Of a stretch of 64,000 nucleotides of DNA, positions 29,592 through 56,394 are shown one piece after another. Numbering within the stretch: position 1 is the first letter of the stretch; every line of letters begins with the position of its first letter. A program made the position numbers and the translations under genes. The notes under the pieces are model-generated. The model saw only the letters and a program-made list of their open reading frames with translations. It was not told the DNA's origin and searched no databases. Source of the DNA: Candidatus Eiseniibacteriota bacterium (lineage in GTDB: Bacteria; Eisenbacteria; RBG-16-71-46; CAVPCR01); assembly GCA_963823555.1 (NCBI GenBank), contig CAWGMA010000002.1, positions 64,001-128,000 of the forward strand, written 5' to 3'.

Positions 29592-31433
29592 CTAGCGTAC
29601 GATGGCGAGGCGCGTGACCTCGCCCGCGGTCGCTCCGTCCACGCTCAGGCGCAGGAAGTAGACGCCGTTCGGGGCCAGCTCTCCCGCGGCCGTGCGACCA
29701 TCCCACGACAGGGCGTGCTCGCCGCCGGTCTGGACGCCGCGGTCGAGACGGCGGACGAGCCGGCCGTCCGGCGCGTAGATCGCAATCTCGACGTCGGCGC
29801 TCTGCGGCAGCTCGTAGCGCAGCATGGCCGGGCCCAGCGTCGGATTGGGGCTGGCCTGGAGGCCGGCGAGTCGTGGCATGGGTGCTGAGGGCTCGACCGG
29901 AATCGGACCGGCCGACTCCGTGATGTCGTCGACGCTGATATGGGCGGCCGGATCGCGGTCGACGATTTCCAGATAGGCACGCACGCCGACGTACGCGTTC
30001 AGACCCGTCCAGGTGCGCTCGGTCATCACCTCGCTGCCCGAGCCGGTTGCCGTGCGGAGCGGGGTCCCGGTCGTCGAGTCGACGAGGGCGACGTAGCAGG
30101 TGGGCGAGATCGGGCCGCCCACCCACAGGATCATGTCCCCGCCCCCGATCGTGAACGACTTCGAGCGCAGCACTCCGGTGTAGCTCTCGTCGGGGCTACA
30201 GGTGGGGCAGCCCCCCCCATACGGGCCGCTGTCGTTCTCGGATGTGTTCACCCAGAACAGCCCGTCCACGTTGGAGCGCGGCCCGCCGCGCCCTGCCGGC
30301 CGATCGCGATAGGTGGGCATGGCGCCCAGCTGGCCCTCGACGATCGTCCAGTTGAGATAGAAGCGGTTGAAGGGCAGGACGAGCGGGCCGTTCTGCGTCC
30401 ACGACAGGTCGTCGATGATCACCGCCCTGGCCTCGAGGTTGGCCTGGGTGATGAAGTCGACGGCATGCGAGTAGAGGTAGGAGCTGCCGAGGTCGGTGAT
30501 CTCGCTGGAGATGGCATTCTGGTCGAAGACGGTATCGGTCGTGATCGTCCAGCCCTGGTCGATCTGGCTCGAGGTCAGGCGGTGCACGCCGCCGGGCTCG
30601 ATCTGCCGGGCATAGAACAGGTTCCAGAGGTTGGTCACCGGGTTCCGGTTCATGTGGCTCGATGCCATCAGGCTCGAGTGGTTGTTCATGACCAGGGGGC
30701 GACCGATGTCGGTCCAGTTGAGGCCATCGGTGGAGGTGGCCATGGCGATGGCCCCCTTGGCTTCTTGACCCAGGTATCCGGAGCGCGTGCTGGCGCTCGC
30801 CAGCATCACGAACTGAGCCCCGTTCTTGAAGATGAACGGGTCACGGCAGTTCTGCCAGGTCGAGTCGGGGTGCCATGCCGCCCACACCGTGCTCGGCCGG
30901 AAGGCGCCATCGGTCACCGAGATATCCGTCCAGGCGTAGAGGTCGGACGATACCGCGAGCCCGACCTGCTGATTGCGGAGCGAATCCACGCCGGTGTACG
31001 CCATGATATAGGGCCAGGTCGTCTGACCGACGGTGACATCGGCGCGGAGGACGTGGGGCGCCCACACGTTGCGGGCCTTCCATCCGTTCGGGATGTCGAT
31101 GGGCAGGATGCGAGGCTCGGTCGTCCAGTGGATGAGATCGGTCGACGTGGCGTGTCCGAGGTCGATCTCGTTGCCGGGGAGGTTCCACCCCTCGCCGGCG
31201 AAACCCACCGAGTAGAACAGATGGTACACGCCGTCGGTGTGGCGGATCAGCGAGTGATCCTTGGCGTAGAGCTCGGGGGCCTCGGCGAAGACCCGCATCT
31301 CGAAATCATCCTTGAAGACGGCTCCTGCCGGTAGCGGCAGCAGCATGCCTGCGGCGACAAGGAGGCTGGCGCCGACGATCATGGTGCGGATGGACCTGTT
31401 CGCTCCGAGAAGGCTGAAACGCGCGGTGCGCAT
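29592..31433 (-). CDS. Secreted clan GH-J (GH32-like) beta-propeller + beta-sandwich + FlgD-Ig/T9SS-like CTD
   Basis: KDHS..YHLFY, GHATSTDLIHW, WAPHV, RDPF; TGVLRSKSFTI...HISVDDI module; CTD PNP...WDGR...GVYFLRL. Confidence 0.75.
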   Translation of the reverse strand: MRTARFSLLGANRSIRTMIVGASLLVAAGMLLPLPAGAVFKDDFEMRVFAEAPELYAKDHSLIRHTDGVYHLFYSVGFAGEGWNLPGNEIDLGHATSTDLIHWTTEPRILPIDIPNGWKARNVWAPHVLRADVTVGQTTWPYIMAYTGVDSLRNQQVGLAVSSDLYAWTDISVTDGAFRPSTVWAAWHPDSTWQNCRDPFIFKNGAQFVMLASASTRSGYLGQEAKGAIAMATSTDGLNWTDIGRPLVMNNHSSLMASSHMNRNPVTNLWNLFYARQIEPGGVHRLTSSQIDQGWTITTDTVFDQNAISSEITDLGSSYLYSHAVDFITQANLEARAVIIDDLSWTQNGPLVLPFNRFYLNWTIVEGQLGAMPTYRDRPAGRGGPRSNVDGLFWVNTSENDSGPYGGGCPTCSPDESYTGVLRSKSFTIGGGDMILWVGGPISPTCYVALVDSTTGTPLRTATGSGSEVMTERTWTGLNAYVGVRAYLEIVDRDPAAHISVDDITESAGPIPVEPSAPMPRLAGLQASPNPTLGPAMLRYELPQSADVEIAIYAPDGRLVRRLDRGVQTGGEHALSWDGRTAAGELAPNGVYFLRLSVDGATAGEVTRLAIVR

Positions 31434-42762: not shown

Positions 42763-43992
42763 GTGGAGCGCACGGTCCCGGCCGCCAGCACGTCCTCGCG
42801 ATCGTCCCGGCTCTGGGCATCGCGACGGCGGATCGCCCTCTTTGTCGCGCTCATCCTGTTCCTGGCCGTGATGTACCGCTTTCAGATCCTGCCGACCACG
42901 GCCGATGTCCTCCTCGACTACTTCCTCTACATGTCGGCGGCGACGACGTTCACGCCGTTGCCGACGCCTCCCGTCATCATTCATGCCGCGACCAAGGCGC
43001 CGGTCGCGCTGGTGGCCGTCGTCGGGGCGCTGGGGACGGTCGTCGCCTACCTCATCGAATACGCGGTTCTGGGGCGAGTGCTGGCGATCGACCGCCTGCG
43101 CGGCATCCGCGAGAATCGGATGTACCTGCGGCTCGCTTCGCTCTTCGACCGCCTGCCCTTCATCTCCCTGACCATCGCCGCCTTTCTACCCCTGCCGGTG
43201 GATGGTGTGCGCTTGATCGCCATTGCGCGCCGCTATGATCGATTTCGCTACGCGCTGGCCGCCTTCATCGGCCGCGTCCCGCGCTATGCCCTGATCGCCG
43301 GGCTGGGGTATGGCCTCCGCTTCGTGCTCCCGCTCGGTGCCGCCGCCGAGGAGCAACCTGCCCTCCCGGAGATGACAGCCGCGAGCACCGCGGACTCGCA
43401 TCTCGCGGCGAGCCTGACCCGACTCGATGCGGCGCTGGCCAAGCTCGAGGATGCCCACGGGCGTTTCCATCAGGAACGCTGGTCGCCGGCCTTTGCCGAT
43501 CCCGAACGGTCGAGCGGGGAGCTCTGGTTCCGCCGGCCGGGCGACCTGGTCCTTCGCTACCGCGAGCCCGAGTCCCAGGAGATGTACATCGATTCGGCCG
43601 GGGTCTGGATCTACCTCGTCAAGCAGAAGCAGGCGCAGCGGTATCCGTTCGAGAACGAAGCGCAGCGCGATGCCGCGCTGGCCGTGCTCTGGCAGCCTTC
43701 CACCGTGCTGAGTCGCCGCTACGATCTCGCGCGGAGTCCGACCCCGCCCGCCGGCGAGAAGGGAGGCGATTGGCTCCGTCTCACGCCGCATGACGAGAGG
43801 ATCGCCGAGGTCGTCACGGCGGTGCACCTGCGCCTGGCCGCCAAGACTGGACTCTCCGATTGCATCCTCGTCGAGCAGCAGGACGGGCAGCGGGCGCGGC
43901 TCGAGATCGACTCGATCGAGCGCAATCCGGGGTTGCCCGCCCACCGCTTTCGCTTCCAGCCCCCACCGGACGTCGAGGTCGTGCGCTTCTAG
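42763..43992 (+). CDS. DedA/VTT membrane domain fused to LolA-like carrier domain
   Basis: N-half PLP...GALG...AY...AAFLPLP...FIGRVPRY; C-half F.QE...SGELWFRRPG....Y.EP...VWIY...Q, NPGL...F.F.PP.DVEV. Confidence 0.75.
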   Translation: MERTVPAASTSSRSSRLWASRRRIALFVALILFLAVMYRFQILPTTADVLLDYFLYMSAATTFTPLPTPPVIIHAATKAPVALVAVVGALGTVVAYLIEYAVLGRVLAIDRLRGIRENRMYLRLASLFDRLPFISLTIAAFLPLPVDGVRLIAIARRYDRFRYALAAFIGRVPRYALIAGLGYGLRFVLPLGAAAEEQPALPEMTAASTADSHLAASLTRLDAALAKLEDAHGRFHQERWSPAFADPERSSGELWFRRPGDLVLRYREPESQEMYIDSAGVWIYLVKQKQAQRYPFENEAQRDAALAVLWQPSTVLSRRYDLARSPTPPAGEKGGDWLRLTPHDERIAEVVTAVHLRLAAKTGLSDCILVEQQDGQRARLEIDSIERNPGLPAHRFRFQPPPDVEVVRF

Positions 43993-45923: not shown

Positions 45924-46305
45924 TATCGCCGCCCGCGTCCCGGTCACCTGGATGGGTCCAGAGACCCTCTTCCACACTGGCTTATCCGAAAGAGTTACCT
46001 TGACTTGGAGCGATCGGTCTGGTATCTTCTTCCCATGTGACGGGCATTCACCCCAGCGGTATCGGGTTCCCTGTCCGCCCTGTGGCTTCGTTCCGTGAGC
46101 AGTCTTCATTCACTGATCCGCATCCGGCGCACGGATACGGGGCCATTCGTTTCTACAGCGCATCGTTCGCCGAACGCCCGGCGGTACCCCTTGGTCACCG
46201 CGTCCGGAACCGCAGGGCCTCGGTGATGAGTTCATGATTCTCGGGTCGGCGCAGGTTTTTGCGACGATACGCGAGAGTCTGCCGTGACGCGGATGGAGGT
46301 CCTTC

Positions 46306-46992
46306 ATGAGGGGCATCACGGCTCTGGCCACCTTCGCCCTTCTTGTGGGGATGGTTGGGGTTTCGGTTGCGGAGCCCTATCTCCTGAACCTCTCGGGGAA
46401 CAACTTCTCCATCACCGAAGCCACGGCTATCGGTGGTGAGCTCGAGGTTGCCGCCCTTCTCTCACAGGTTCAGGACAACCCTCCGTTCCCACTGCCTGGC
46501 ATCCTTGACTGGAGCACCGAGTACACGGTGAGCATCCGCGAGCTGATCCTGGTCGATCCGCCCTCGAACCCGGTCAAGTCGTATTCCGGTGGCGTGATCG
46601 AACTGTGGTCGGACACGCCGCCCGACGCGCCCTGGACGCCGACCACGCCGGTTTCGAGCATTCCGGCGTACAACGCAACCCAGGTGCCGGCGACCCTGGT
46701 CGACGGCGCGGCGGTTCTCACCGGTGTCTTCACGCAGTTCGCGACGCTCTTCTTCGGCGGTCAGACCGGTTCGATCAGCGCAACGATCAACTGGACTGGC
46801 GGCTCGGAGTTCGCTGGACTGCAGGCGCTCGGCATCGAGAACGACTGGCACTGGAACGGCTGGTTCAACATTGGCGCACCGGTGCCTCCAGGCTATTTGC
46901 GCCTCTATGGTGGCAAGCTGGAGCGCGAGACTCCGGTGGCGGTTGAGCCCGCGACCTGGGGCGAGATCAAGAACCTCCTGCGGGCCCAATAG
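46306..46992 (+). CDS. Secreted beta-rich protein with C-terminal VEPATWGEIK tail (paralog 1)
   Basis: GGAGG RBS, signal peptide, shared motifs with next two genes. Confidence 0.8.
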   Translation: MRGITALATFALLVGMVGVSVAEPYLLNLSGNNFSITEATAIGGELEVAALLSQVQDNPPFPLPGILDWSTEYTVSIRELILVDPPSNPVKSYSGGVIELWSDTPPDAPWTPTTPVSSIPAYNATQVPATLVDGAAVLTGVFTQFATLFFGGQTGSISATINWTGGSEFAGLQALGIENDWHWNGWFNIGAPVPPGYLRLYGGKLERETPVAVEPATWGEIKNLLRAQ

Positions 46993-47104
46993 GCTGGCAG
47001 GTGTCGTTGCTTCGAAACTGACAGCGGCCGGTTCTCATTCCGGAGAATGGCTGCAGACCGGAAAAGAAACTGAAAAGCACAACTTTGGCACCGGAGGTGT
47101 CTCA

Positions 47105-47764
47105 ATGAAGCACGGCGCAGTGGCTCTCCTGGTTGGCTTGATCGCGTTGGCTCCTCTGGGGGCGAATGCGGCCAGCCTCATCGACTTCGTAGGGTACTCC
47201 TACGAGACGGGAGCCTTTCCTCCGTCCAATCCCGGTGATCAGCTGAACCTCGTCGCCACCGTCGACGGGTTGACCCTTCCGCTGTCCTGGGATCCTCTTG
47301 CCTACGAATACACGATGCACCTCAGCAACCTGGTCTCCCAGGGCGAGCAGCATCCCGACCCGAACAACATCGTCATCCAGTACACGGGCGGTGCGTTCGA
47401 TCTCTTCGAGGACAGCTCATTCAATGCCAGCGGGCCGGGCTCCTATGGAGTCAATCCGCCCAACGCGAACGTCCCGGCATTCTTCATCGATGGCACGCAC
47501 TACCTCGGCGGCGACCTGACTGCGTTCACGATCTTCTACAACACGCAGTTCAACTCGGGCGCTTTCGAGGCCAACGTCGCCTTCATGGACGGTGCCCATT
47601 ACGGTGAGCTCGGCCCCCAGACCACCGGCTATACCTTCGGCGGTGTCTTCATCTTCGGCACCCCCTCGGGGTATGACCTCCAGTGGGATGGCCAGATCCT
47701 GCTCGATCCGGTGGCGGTCGAAGCTTCGACCTGGGGCCATGTGAAGGGGATGTTCCAGCCCTAG
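47105..47764 (+). CDS. Secreted beta-rich protein with C-terminal VEASTWGHVK tail (paralog 2)
   Basis: GGAGGT RBS, signal peptide ending ANA. Confidence 0.8.
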   Translation: MKHGAVALLVGLIALAPLGANAASLIDFVGYSYETGAFPPSNPGDQLNLVATVDGLTLPLSWDPLAYEYTMHLSNLVSQGEQHPDPNNIVIQYTGGAFDLFEDSSFNASGPGSYGVNPPNANVPAFFIDGTHYLGGDLTAFTIFYNTQFNSGAFEANVAFMDGAHYGELGPQTTGYTFGGVFIFGTPSGYDLQWDGQILLDPVAVEASTWGHVKGMFQP

Positions 47765-47873
47765 GCTGGGTTGTCGGGCAGAGAAGCTCGAGTAGTCGGG
47801 AAGGCCGCCCCGGTAGGTTAGTTGAGCGACCCGAGGGCGCGCCAGCGCCTGCGCAGCAGTTGTGGTGCAGGAG

Positions 47874-48596
47874 ATGTTCAGAAAGATCACCGTTGTCATG
47901 CTTCTCCTGGTCGTCGTGGCAGGATCCACGCGAGCAGCAGAGGCGTGGTCAGGGGAGGGTGCGGGCGAGGCGATTCAGCAGTTCGACCACTGGGGCTTTT
48001 CCATTGCGCCGGAGCCCCAGCGGATCGGAGATGAGCTGGAGCTCGTCTGTGTTCTCAACCCGGTGACGACCTGGGTTCCCTTGCCCCTCGATTTCTCGGC
48101 CAACGAATATACCGTGCACGTTTACGGGCTCATCCTGAAGGAGCGGATCCAGGATGGGCCCTTTGTGCAGTCGACCTATTCGCAGGGCTTCGCCGACATC
48201 TACGCCGATCCTTCCTTCAACGCGCCCTTCACCCACAACACACCGGCACCCGATGTCCCGCCCCTCGATCCGGACCAGGTGCCGGCCAGCTTCACCGACG
48301 GCGAGCTGATCGTTCGGTTCACGGTCGGCGATGTGGTCACGATCTTCTATACGACCCCGGGAATCGGCACTGTCGCCTACACGAATTCGGACCTCCGCGT
48401 GATCGGCGGCTCGGCCCGGGATCTTCTCAACGAAGAGCACATGATCGTGGGCTGGCACATGGGGGGGGGATACACGGACGAGCCCGGCACCGTGCCTCAG
48501 GGCTACGGCTACCGCTACGACACGCTGTTCCGGTGGGAGAATCCGCTGCCTGTCGAACCCGCGACGTGGGGAGGAATCAAGTCGTCGTTCAAGTGA
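47874..48596 (+). CDS. Secreted beta-rich protein with C-terminal VEPATWGGIK tail (paralog 3)
   Basis: Signal peptide MFRKITVVMLLLVVVAGSTRA; start 47862 or 47874. Confidence 0.8.
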   Translation: MFRKITVVMLLLVVVAGSTRAAEAWSGEGAGEAIQQFDHWGFSIAPEPQRIGDELELVCVLNPVTTWVPLPLDFSANEYTVHVYGLILKERIQDGPFVQSTYSQGFADIYADPSFNAPFTHNTPAPDVPPLDPDQVPASFTDGELIVRFTVGDVVTIFYTTPGIGTVAYTNSDLRVIGGSARDLLNEEHMIVGWHMGGGYTDEPGTVPQGYGYRYDTLFRWENPLPVEPATWGGIKSSFK

Positions 48597-53769: not shown

Positions 53770-56394
53770 CTAGCGGTCGACGGCCACCTTGCGGATCCGG
53801 GCGATGCCATCCGCCTCGAGGCGCACCAGGTAGAGCCCGCGAGCGACCGCGACGCCGCTGGCGTTCCGCCCGTCCCAGCGTGCCTCGTGGTTCCCGGCGG
53901 CGAGCCGTCCTTGCACGAGCTCGCGCACGAAGCGTCCCTGGACGTCGTAGACGCAGACCCGGACCTCGGCATCCCGGGGCAGGTCGAAGCCGAGGCTCGT
54001 GCCTTCGCGCGCGGGATTGGGTACCGCCGGGAAGAGCCGCGGTGCCGCCGCCGGCGCACCGGCCGCCACCTCGATGCCGGCCGCCGCACCGAGATCGTAG
54101 GTGAACATCGACCGGCCGTAGGTCGCGGCCGTCAACACGCGTGTCGGCTGATGGAGCTTGAGCGCCGACACCACGACGTTGGGCAGGTCGGTGCCGAGAG
54201 CGGACCATGAACCACCGGTGTCGTTCGTCGAGTACACGCCGACATCGGTGGCGACATAGAGCGCTGCCGGGTCTTCGGGGTCGACGACCAGGTCGTTGAC
54301 CGGCGCCTCGGGCAGGTTCGAGCTGATCGGGTTCCAGGTCGCCCCGAAGTCGGTGGTGCGGTAGACGTGCGGCAGGGGATCATCATCCCGGAAGCCGGAG
54401 AGGGTGGCGTAGGCGATCGCCGCCGAAGTGGGGTCCACCGCCACCCGTGTCACCCAGCGCTCGGGAAGCACCGCGTCGATACGTGTCCAGTTCCCGCCGG
54501 CATTCTGCGTCACCCAGACGTTGGCGTCGTCGGTGCCGGCATAGAGGACGAGCGGATCGCTCGGTGCCACGGCGATCGTGGTGATCGTGGCATAGACGAC
54601 GCCGCCCTGCCCGGGCACGCCATCGGTCAGATCCGGAGAGATCGCCGACCACGAGACCGCGCGGTTCACGCTCCGATACACGCGCTGGGAACCGTAGTAG
54701 AGGATCGATGGGTCGTTCGGGTCGAGCACCACTGGAGTCGACCAGTTCTTGCGGTCGCCGCTGGGAATGCCGCTCGTGGCGCTCGTGAACGAGAGCCCGC
54801 CATTGGTCGAGCGTCCCAGGCCCCCGTACTGGTATTCGGCGTAGATGTAGTTGTTGTTCCCCGGGTCGACGTTCACGTAGAAGCCGTCGCCACCATAGAT
54901 CTGGGACCAGTCGGAGGCGGACCCGGTGAGGGTCCGGTTGGTGCCGTTGTCCTGCGTGCCGCCGTACCGCCGGTGCGGGAGCTGGTAGTCGACATCCAGC
55001 GTGTAGAACTGGGTGATCGGCAGACCGTTCAGCTCGGTCCAGGTGCCGGCGCCGTTCAGCGTCACATAGAGCCCCCCGTCGTTCCCCTCGTAGAAGACTT
55101 GCCCGGCATCGGTGGGGGCGAACTCCATCGCGTGGTGGTCCACGTGCATGTTGGAGCCGTTGATAGACCATGACGCGCCGCCGTTCGTCGAGCGATAGAA
55201 GTCGAGCCCGAGGACGTACACGCGATCGGGATTCGTGGGCTCGACCCGGATGTTCCCGAACCACCAACCGTAAGTGGCATAGGCGCTCGTGAGCGCGGAA
55301 TCGTTGGTGCGGGTCCAGCTGTCGCCGCCGTCCGTGGTCTTGTAGACGCCGGCGAAGTTACCGATCTGGTCGGCGTAGATGGCGTAGAGGACGAGGGGGT
55401 TGGCCGCGCACAGCGCCAGCCCGATGCGACCGTTGACCGCGGCCGGGGAGGGCAGACCGCCGCCGAGAATGGCCCAGCTGTCACCGCCGTCCGTCGAGCG
55501 GTAGATGGCGCTCGTGGGGCCGCCATAGCGGCGCATGTTCGGCCGGCGGATCCGCTCCCAGGTGGCGGCGTAGACCCTGAGTGGGTTCGCGGGGTCGATG
55601 ACGAGATCGATGGCTCCGGTCGAGTCCGTGACGGCGAGGACGTGCTGCCAGGTGGCGCCGGCATCGGACGAGCGAAAGATGCCGCGCTCGGGATTGGTCG
55701 AGAAGAGGCTGCCCAGGGCGGCGACGAAGACGCGATCCGGATTCGCCGGGTCGACGACCACGCGGCCGATGTAGCGGGTCGCCGCGAGGCCCATGTGAGT
55801 CCACGTGGCCCCGCCGTTCGTCGTCTTGTAGATGCCGTTGCCGCCGTAGGTGACGCTGCCGCCACCGCCGTTCGGTTCGCCGGTGCCGACATAGAGAATG
55901 TCGCCGTCATCGGGGTCGACGGCGAGGTCGCCGATCGAGAGGGTCTCTTGCTGGTCGAAGAGCGGAGTCCAGGAGACGCCGCCGTCGGTGGTCTTCAGCA
56001 CGCCGCCCTCGGCGGCGCCGACGTAGACCGTGAGCGGATCGTGCGGGTCGATGGCGAGGTCGGCGATGCGGCCGCCGATGTTGATCGGTCCGACCGGGTC
56101 CCAGGCCACTGCGTTATCCGGGACTTCGGCCTTGAGGCTGGCGGCCTCGGCCCGCATGCGAGCGAGGTCGGCGGGATCGATCTCCGCGTGCGGGTAGGCA
56201 CGCTGCGCGAAGAACCAGTCGCTGGGTGCGGTCCCTTCCTCCTCCTCTTCCTCTCCGGCGCGTTCGCCGGCATCGTCGCGGTCGAGTCGCCGATCGACCG
56301 GCATGAACCGCTCGGCGATCAGGATCCCGGCCACGGGGAGGAAGATGATGAGAAGCAGGAGGATGATTCGGCGAACGGTCTGCGGAGAGAGCAT
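53770..56394 (-). CDS. BNR/Asp-box (VPS10/GH74-like) repeat protein with FlgD-Ig/T9SS-like CTD
   Basis: GP.NIGGRI, many [ST]xDGGxxW repeats, GGTQDNG, ATYGRS; CTD PNP...YDVQGRFV...WDGRN...GLYLVRL. Confidence 0.85.
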   Translation of the reverse strand: MLSPQTVRRIILLLLIIFLPVAGILIAERFMPVDRRLDRDDAGERAGEEEEEEGTAPSDWFFAQRAYPHAEIDPADLARMRAEAASLKAEVPDNAVAWDPVGPINIGGRIADLAIDPHDPLTVYVGAAEGGVLKTTDGGVSWTPLFDQQETLSIGDLAVDPDDGDILYVGTGEPNGGGGSVTYGGNGIYKTTNGGATWTHMGLAATRYIGRVVVDPANPDRVFVAALGSLFSTNPERGIFRSSDAGATWQHVLAVTDSTGAIDLVIDPANPLRVYAATWERIRRPNMRRYGGPTSAIYRSTDGGDSWAILGGGLPSPAAVNGRIGLALCAANPLVLYAIYADQIGNFAGVYKTTDGGDSWTRTNDSALTSAYATYGWWFGNIRVEPTNPDRVYVLGLDFYRSTNGGASWSINGSNMHVDHHAMEFAPTDAGQVFYEGNDGGLYVTLNGAGTWTELNGLPITQFYTLDVDYQLPHRRYGGTQDNGTNRTLTGSASDWSQIYGGDGFYVNVDPGNNNYIYAEYQYGGLGRSTNGGLSFTSATSGIPSGDRKNWSTPVVLDPNDPSILYYGSQRVYRSVNRAVSWSAISPDLTDGVPGQGGVVYATITTIAVAPSDPLVLYAGTDDANVWVTQNAGGNWTRIDAVLPERWVTRVAVDPTSAAIAYATLSGFRDDDPLPHVYRTTDFGATWNPISSNLPEAPVNDLVVDPEDPAALYVATDVGVYSTNDTGGSWSALGTDLPNVVVSALKLHQPTRVLTAATYGRSMFTYDLGAAAGIEVAAGAPAAAPRLFPAVPNPAREGTSLGFDLPRDAEVRVCVYDVQGRFVRELVQGRLAAGNHEARWDGRNASGVAVARGLYLVRLEADGIARIRKVAVDR

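Follow-up and report, generated by a model that had tools for sequence, protein, structure and literature searches.

Three tandem genes in the window, the whole stretch of 64,000 nucleotides analysed here from a Candidatus Eiseniibacteriota genome (G000), encode proteins that end in a short tail with the residues TWG, and this tail is a real, uncatalogued signal. With slightly better than even confidence we read it as a peptide-sized signal recognised by T9SS-type machinery, which would bring its cargo to the cell surface. Its terminal position, the unrelated bodies that carry it, the way in which the T9SS C-terminal domain (CTD) or PEP-CTERM can stand in its place, the missing membrane helix and the presence of SprA, PorU and PorV in the genome together argue for a sorting signal of this kind. 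To our knowledge, the only features by which T9SS cargo is now recognised are folded domains at the C-terminus. A T9SS signal of 17 residues, if true, would change the view of how the T9SS selects its cargo, and would reassign some 2-3% of this genome's proteins to the cell surface, together with many from other uncultured phyla.

The tail in the trio and across the genome

The three co-oriented, secreted paralogs of about 220-245 aa described in the first-pass annotation were confirmed on the plus strand (228, 219 and 244 aa; Table 1). Their shared body was borne out by pairwise identities of 30-32% (E 1e-13 to 1e-21), all three pass a crude hydrophobicity test for a signal peptide, and the tail letters first given for them are exact, with 6, 5 and 4 residues following the Lys. 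In the third paralog an in-frame ATG lies four codons downstream of the GTG start. Contigs from RNA libraries (three sediment metatranscriptome runs) begin at 46056, 46057 and 46064, 28-36 bases past the promoter-like site, a weak hint that the trio is transcribed. They extend over paralogs 1 and 2 into the first part of paralog 3, and leave the flanking genes and most of 3 uncovered; such contigs permit no ranking of expression, and absence of cover proves nothing.

Table 1. Features of the trio (positions in the window) and the candidate tail reader (position in the genome).
Feature	Position	Strand	Basis
Sigma-70-like promoter match, TTGACT-17-TATCTT, upstream of the trio	46000..46028	+	1 found vs 0.3 expected
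Paralog 1, 228 aa: predicted signal peptide, barrel-family body, TWG tail	46306..46992	+	reading frame, crude signal test, family comparison
Tail 1, PVAVEPATWGEIKNLLRAQ	46933..46989	+	motif scan
Paralog 2, 219 aa from ATG at 47105: predicted signal peptide, predicted beta-barrel (residues 24-200), linker, TWG tail	47105..47764	+	reading frame, AlphaFold2 model
Tail 2, PVAVEASTWGHVKGMFQP	47708..47761	+	motif scan
Paralog 3, 244 aa from GTG: predicted signal peptide, barrel-family body, TWG tail	47862..48596	+	reading frame, crude signal test, family comparison
Tail 3, PLPVEPATWGGIKSSFK	48543..48593	+	motif scan
V6, orphan PorV paralog, candidate tail reader	G000 C1:1490698-1491834		

The neighbours of the trio in the window encode STAS and DUF1232 proteins and products without a family match. 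The trio family is present in 31 of 61 kin genomes (30 of 60 without the unpublished genome G015), mostly as tandem pairs that are two old subfamilies. In many kin genomes (L022, L024-L036; the L022 rows of the family comparisons include G015) a Ser/Thr kinase-TPR gene adjoins the pair, and none stands beside the trio in the window. Elsewhere in the window, a single ORF at 42763-43992 contains both a VTT/DedA-like membrane domain (below cut-off) and a LolA domain, and two CTD-bearing proteins are encoded, a sortilin/BNR propeller (53770-56394) and a GH32/GH43-like enzyme (29592-31433).

The tail consensus is [AP]-V-E-P-[AST]-T-W-G-x-I-K-[AS]-x-[YF]-R, with a shorter form [AP]VE[P]x[ST]WGx[IV]Kxx[YF], and spans about 17 residues. 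A six-frame scan of the genome for [ST]WGx[IVLM]K gave 109 matches, 104 of them 3-11 residues before a stop, and 91 of the 3650 called genes end in the motif, as against a mean of 0.0 in 30 proteome shuffles. The motif extends well beyond the trio, the bodies of the 104 tail frames falling into 64 BLAST clusters, and the proposed enrichment of signal peptides was found in 68 of the 91 tail genes as compared with 1112 of 3559 other genes, by a crude hydrophobicity criterion and not a dedicated predictor. Family matches on the bodies include beta-helix, PKD, LTD, PD40, DUF4397, DVUA0089 and c-type cytochrome, and the tail-bearing proteins are short (median 240 aa, longest 488, n=85) compared with CTD proteins (median 674, n=229). 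Two tail proteins, C3:702719-703441 and C2:452799-453368, hold 4 and 2 CxxCH heme motifs and are possible surface cytochromes; a third, C1:1651055-1652413 (L007), has an internal and a terminal tail copy and is apparently a tandem fusion.

No Pfam or NCBIfam model matched the tail in the 51 of 104 proteins scanned (the trio and 48 others; for two proteins the best 5 families were taken), and the T9SS type A CTD models TIGR04183/PF18962 matched none of these. The tail nevertheless shows the properties of tripartite signals, namely nearness to the C-terminus, many copies, invariant signature residues and unrelated bodies, as taken from bioRxiv 2023.06.07.544157, a paper in which 'TWG' is absent from the main text. 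A literature search, with most subscription journals and supplements outside its scope, found no description of the motif, and the matches listed for its letters were all unrelated 'TTWG'.

Structure of the tail and its exchange with other signals

An AlphaFold2 model of paralog 2 (53 sequences; mean pLDDT 87) predicts a beta body at residues 24-200, a linker with pLDDT 66 and a helix at 210-216. The best structural match of the body is 2q03 (Z 9.2, rmsd 3.4 over 119 residues, aligned at 20-201), which suggests a fold like that of the small antiparallel beta-barrels of the DUF3224, allene-oxide-cyclase and dirigent type; the identity is 11%, however, the Z score is barely over the usual best for unmatched models, and no function follows. 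Foldseek returned no match for the body at E 0.001, and the ESM Atlas gave unnamed clusters only. On the T9SS reading, the members of the trio would be displayed at the surface, each with a small beta-barrel as its body.

That the tail is instead a structural part of the fold of this family has hardly any probability left. All 50 homologs of paralog 2 listed keep the tail or a close variant (49 by pattern), as such a fold element should, but the spread of the tail over 64 clusters refutes this account, as does one family member (G013) that ends in PEP-CTERM instead, and in the model the tail follows the lower-confidence linker, outside the predicted barrel.

The first-pass annotation held that the tail is better conserved than the body, which applies to V (0.92), W (0.98) and K (1.0) against a body mean of 0.62 and not to every other tail position. 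Its lack of a basic cluster was upheld, no Arg cluster being present, and so was that of a transmembrane helix, none of 91 proteins showing one when a 19-residue window was applied past residue 45; with a 15-residue window close to the protein end, 6 of 102 tail proteins exceed 1.6, in the region of body strands. The short amphipathic helix that had been suggested agrees with the helix at 210-216 in the model, but the helical moment of 0.397 hardly departs from that of shuffles (mean 0.362, maximum 0.398). The strand-type moment of 0.558 is far over shuffles (mean 0.352, maximum 0.408).

These properties bear on a second account, in which the tail is a weak membrane-binding helix, or an end for a periplasmic protease or chaperone, and the proteins stay in the periplasm. 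The spacing of W, I and Y/F at i, i+3 and i+7 and the predicted helix would suit it, as would the TolB-like and cytochrome bodies. A few tail proteins that look periplasm-compatible (TolB-like proteins, c-type cytochromes) and the lack of a CTD fold in the tail count against the T9SS reading as well. We judge such an intra-envelope tag improbable, though, since the helical moment barely exceeds that of shuffles, the tail swaps with two surface-sorting signals, and the T-W-G-S-I-K-A-I-F-R sequence invariant in 40 Ignavibacteria rows suits a specific partner more than lipid.

The swap with the CTD is seen in 6 of the 64 tail clusters of the genome, in which a paralog can be aligned over the body up to its end and has a T9SS-type CTD from the same junction onward; the largest such cluster has 15 members with the tail and 14 with the CTD. 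The tail motif occurs in 0 of 237 terminal-CTD proteins, and the junction motif [AGP][VI][EDA] is present in 80 of 104 tails and 117 of 236 CTD linkers, with 30 in control segments. The T9SS type A CTD (TIGR04183/PF18962; FlgD_ig-like PF13860 in these phyla) is read by PorV and cut by PorU. Tail and CTD are alike in their place at the extreme C-terminus of Sec-type proteins with unrelated bodies, in the junction motif, in ending the same bodies, in a terminal Lys followed by alternating residues, and in their presence in genomes that carry SprA, PorV and PorU. They differ in that the CTD is an Ig fold of 70-80 residues and the tail has about 17 residues and no model match, in the smaller cargo and often missing PorU site of the tail, and in the persistence of the tail in Oligoflexales-order genomes with no T9SS core found. 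A TWG/TLG-like element directly before the CTD was found in 7 of the 140 CTD proteins closest to a Poribacteria one, only 1 of them with Trp, and one Poribacteria-type case of a tail element preceding a CTD is among the tail loci collected; in Poribacteria this arrangement is thus real but in the minority.

The swap with PEP-CTERM was found in a trio-family pair of G013, in which one gene has the tail and its neighbour carries a PEP-CTERM that scores above cut-off; the pair precedes a polysaccharide operon that includes an exosortase. The PEP-CTERM paralog is a long branch in the family tree, which gave no direction for the swap. Hence the earlier remark that the body recalls PepA-type PEP-CTERM proteins is right as to the ending of this paralog, but the trio itself has no PepA model match: flocculation-associated PepA (NF033554) did not match the trio, and the G013 paralog reached 24.6 bits against a cut-off of 80. 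The tail resembles PEP-CTERM/exosortase signals (TIGR02595, PF07589, PF09721), MYXO-CTERM and GlyGly-CTERM as a short terminal motif in many copies on proteins with signal peptides and diverse bodies, and shares with PEP-CTERM the swap within the trio family and the DVUA0089 cargo; it lacks the membrane helix, the Arg cluster and the exosortase dependence of such tripartite signals. A third account, in which the tail is a shortened signal of PEP-CTERM type and exosortase, or some other sorting protease within the membrane, processes it, we regard as very improbable; for exosortase it is largely refuted by the many tail-bearing genomes in which no match to the enzyme was found. The start of the tail, VE[P][AS]TW, is similar to that of PEP-CTERM-type motifs, and the G013 pair stands first in the operon for exosortase and polysaccharide, but no exosortase match was found in G000 (92.5% complete), in 10 of 10 Poribacteria and 3 of 3 Fermentibacteria, or in 28 of the 56 tail-bearing handles in all.

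Secretion machinery and a candidate reader

SprA (C1:1890241-1896771) and PorU are over cut-off in this genome, along with six PorV-family genes and 237 terminal CTDs. Among the 56 tail-bearing handles (53 distinct genomes) SprA was matched in 51 and over cut-off in 41, the Poribacteria matches lying below cut-off. The GldM motor model matched in 0 of 13 genomes, the SprA-bearing G000 being among the cases noted, and in no control either. The first-pass annotation had inferred a surface-sorting signal with no machinery that it could name; the sorting reading is supported, and the evidence now points to a T9SS-type system, though the link to the T9SS is by inference only. In the mechanism that we propose, tail proteins would cross the inner membrane by Sec export, the free tail would be recognised at the outer membrane by a PorV-family shuttle, for which V6 is the best candidate, and the cargo would pass through SprA and be displayed at the surface, often without PorU cleavage. 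Cleavage of many tails by PorU is doubtful: the site T/E/D/N | G/A/S before the signal (consensus from PMC10202324) fits 23 of 104 tails at the single position compared, which is Pro in 43. The tail also falls one residue short of the local CTD end spacing. A short signal has a parallel in the last 22 residues of one CTD, described in PMC10202324 as sufficient for secretion.

Most PorV paralogs of this genome adjoin a CTD protein or a large receptor gene, and V6 has no CTD gene beside it. The V6 clade spans four lineages, with V6 and one gene each of G090, G082 and G055 (support 98/99 and 100/99), in a tree that took in 4 of the roughly 14 paralogs of Poribacteria; V6 bears a distant resemblance to NCBIfam PorV2 (NF052325), below cut-off. 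With a V6 profile, all 31 kin genomes tested gave a match, and 10 Poribacteria gave 2-4 weaker ones each. In a sample of 201 genomes from the phylum of G090 (Ignavibacteriaceae), 47 bear the tail, and a strong V6 match was found in 41 of them. The other 6 have no strong match, and five of these none at 1e-35, though other PorV genes are present; 10 genomes with a strong V6 and 32 with a mid-score V6-like match are without the tail pattern. This co-occurrence follows lineage, the kin genomes not being independent.

The arrangement has some likeness to the T9SS type B CTD with its PorP/SprF shuttles, a second signal class with its own shuttle barrel and probably uncleaved. The type B signal is a domain of at least 100 residues, usually beside its shuttle gene, whereas the tail is short and its candidate reader is PorV-family and unlinked. 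An orphan shuttle, Fjoh_1677, is reported in PMC12618676 to serve orphan type B signals. Two other candidates for the reader were rejected: the genes next to the Ignavibacteria cargo, at 80 loci, are mostly housekeeping or small membrane genes, and for a PorV gene beside two Poribacteria tail genes an adjoining 2857-aa protein upstream is the likelier cargo. This genome also holds six peptidase C25 proteins in a row with CTDs (C1:490075-519129; 1580-1610 aa) and about 16 long C25 genes in total.

Taxonomic range and the Oligoflexales exception

The tail profile matches 61 of 61 kin genomes of the phylum, probably Ca. Eisenbacteria (60 of 60 without the unpublished G015), with 1 to 108 matches each, and the tail also occurs in Poribacteria, Krumholzibacteriia, Zixibacteria, Fermentibacteria and Ignavibacteria. 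When part of GTDB was scanned for the pattern, 124 loci were obtained, of which 112 pass a loose in-frame check; about 12 failed it and were set aside as chance matches. By title the 124 loci comprise 39 Poribacteria, 28 Eisenbacteria, 3 Zixibacteria, 3 Fermentibacteria, 2 Krumholzibacteriia, 2 Latescibacterota, 16 others and 31 untitled. The genome G130, also considered as a tail bearer, has no real tail.

Poribacteria-style tails were also found in 3 of 61 genomes of the order Oligoflexales (G093, G108 and G134). G093, one chromosome of 2.95 Mb, has the tail on many proteins with signal-peptide-like starts and no SprA, PorV, CTD or exosortase match on that chromosome, and G134 gave no PorV match. 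G108, one whole chromosome of 2.18 Mb, has 13 strict and 15 loose tails, most of them on one family of zincin-like ankyrin lipoproteins, with no SprA, PorV or PorU match over its length and a type II secretin over cut-off. As G093 and G108 bear tails and no T9SS was found in them, the tail can persist without a T9SS in the same cell, which counts against the T9SS reading. Two of the zincin-like ankyrin lipoproteins of G108 (L343, C1:1486522-1488171; L347, 1564826-1566463) end in a dockerin and a CTD in place of the tail. The grafted CTD is 62% identical to a Poribacteria CTD, and the GC content of the module is 0.59-0.61 as compared with 0.49-0.50 in the body. The CTD is likewise kept there without a T9SS, which fits a borrowing of both signals from a neighbour.

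The Oligoflexales help the possibility that the tail is a docking tag, which binds non-covalently to a surface polymer, a scaffold or a CTD-bearing carrier after export by another route or by piggy-back. We hold this, the main rival of the T9SS reading, to be possible, if rather unlikely. It would explain tails kept in Oligoflexales-order genomes with no T9SS core found, with the type II secretin of G108 as one route; furthermore, one protein of G000 has an internal as well as a terminal copy, the element stands ahead of a full CTD in some proteins, where a second export signal would be redundant, many tails lack the PorU site, and PEP-CTERM, the swap partner of the tail, is an anchoring signal. 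Against it, 104 of 109 copies are terminal, and G108 holds a grafted CTD, itself an export signal, so that its tails do not separate export from docking. In addition, neither a binding partner nor a common reader stood out among the listed envelope-type proteins shared by G108 and G000 (at least 165 of 176). A docking tag would still be an uncatalogued targeting module in several phyla.

The T9SS reading may be carried further, to a scheme that we put forward as speculative and unlikely in full: the tail would be a new class of T9SS signal, served by an orphan PorV-family shuttle that is conserved across Ignavibacteria, Eisenbacteria and Poribacteria, and the T9SS-less Oligoflexales would have grafted both Poribacteria signals on protease-ankyrin lipoproteins for the sorting machinery of a neighbour to capture or display.

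In the Ignavibacteria the tail is nearly invariant. Single copies are present in 46 of the 47 tail-bearing genomes of the sample, and the G090 protein, an Ig-like protein of 138 aa, keeps its tail in 120 of 120 homologs listed, the last ten residues being those invariant in the 40 aligned rows. Its body resembles an Ig domain found ahead of the CTDs of G000 (E 5e-8), and its tail is predicted alone with low confidence (pLDDT 54). Cultured Ignavibacteria members presumably carry this protein, and a single, nearly invariant copy makes a simple test case. Five genomes (G240, G244, G256, G300 and G320) have a single tail variant, TWGMIKE[LM]FR, with PorV-family genes present and no V6 match.
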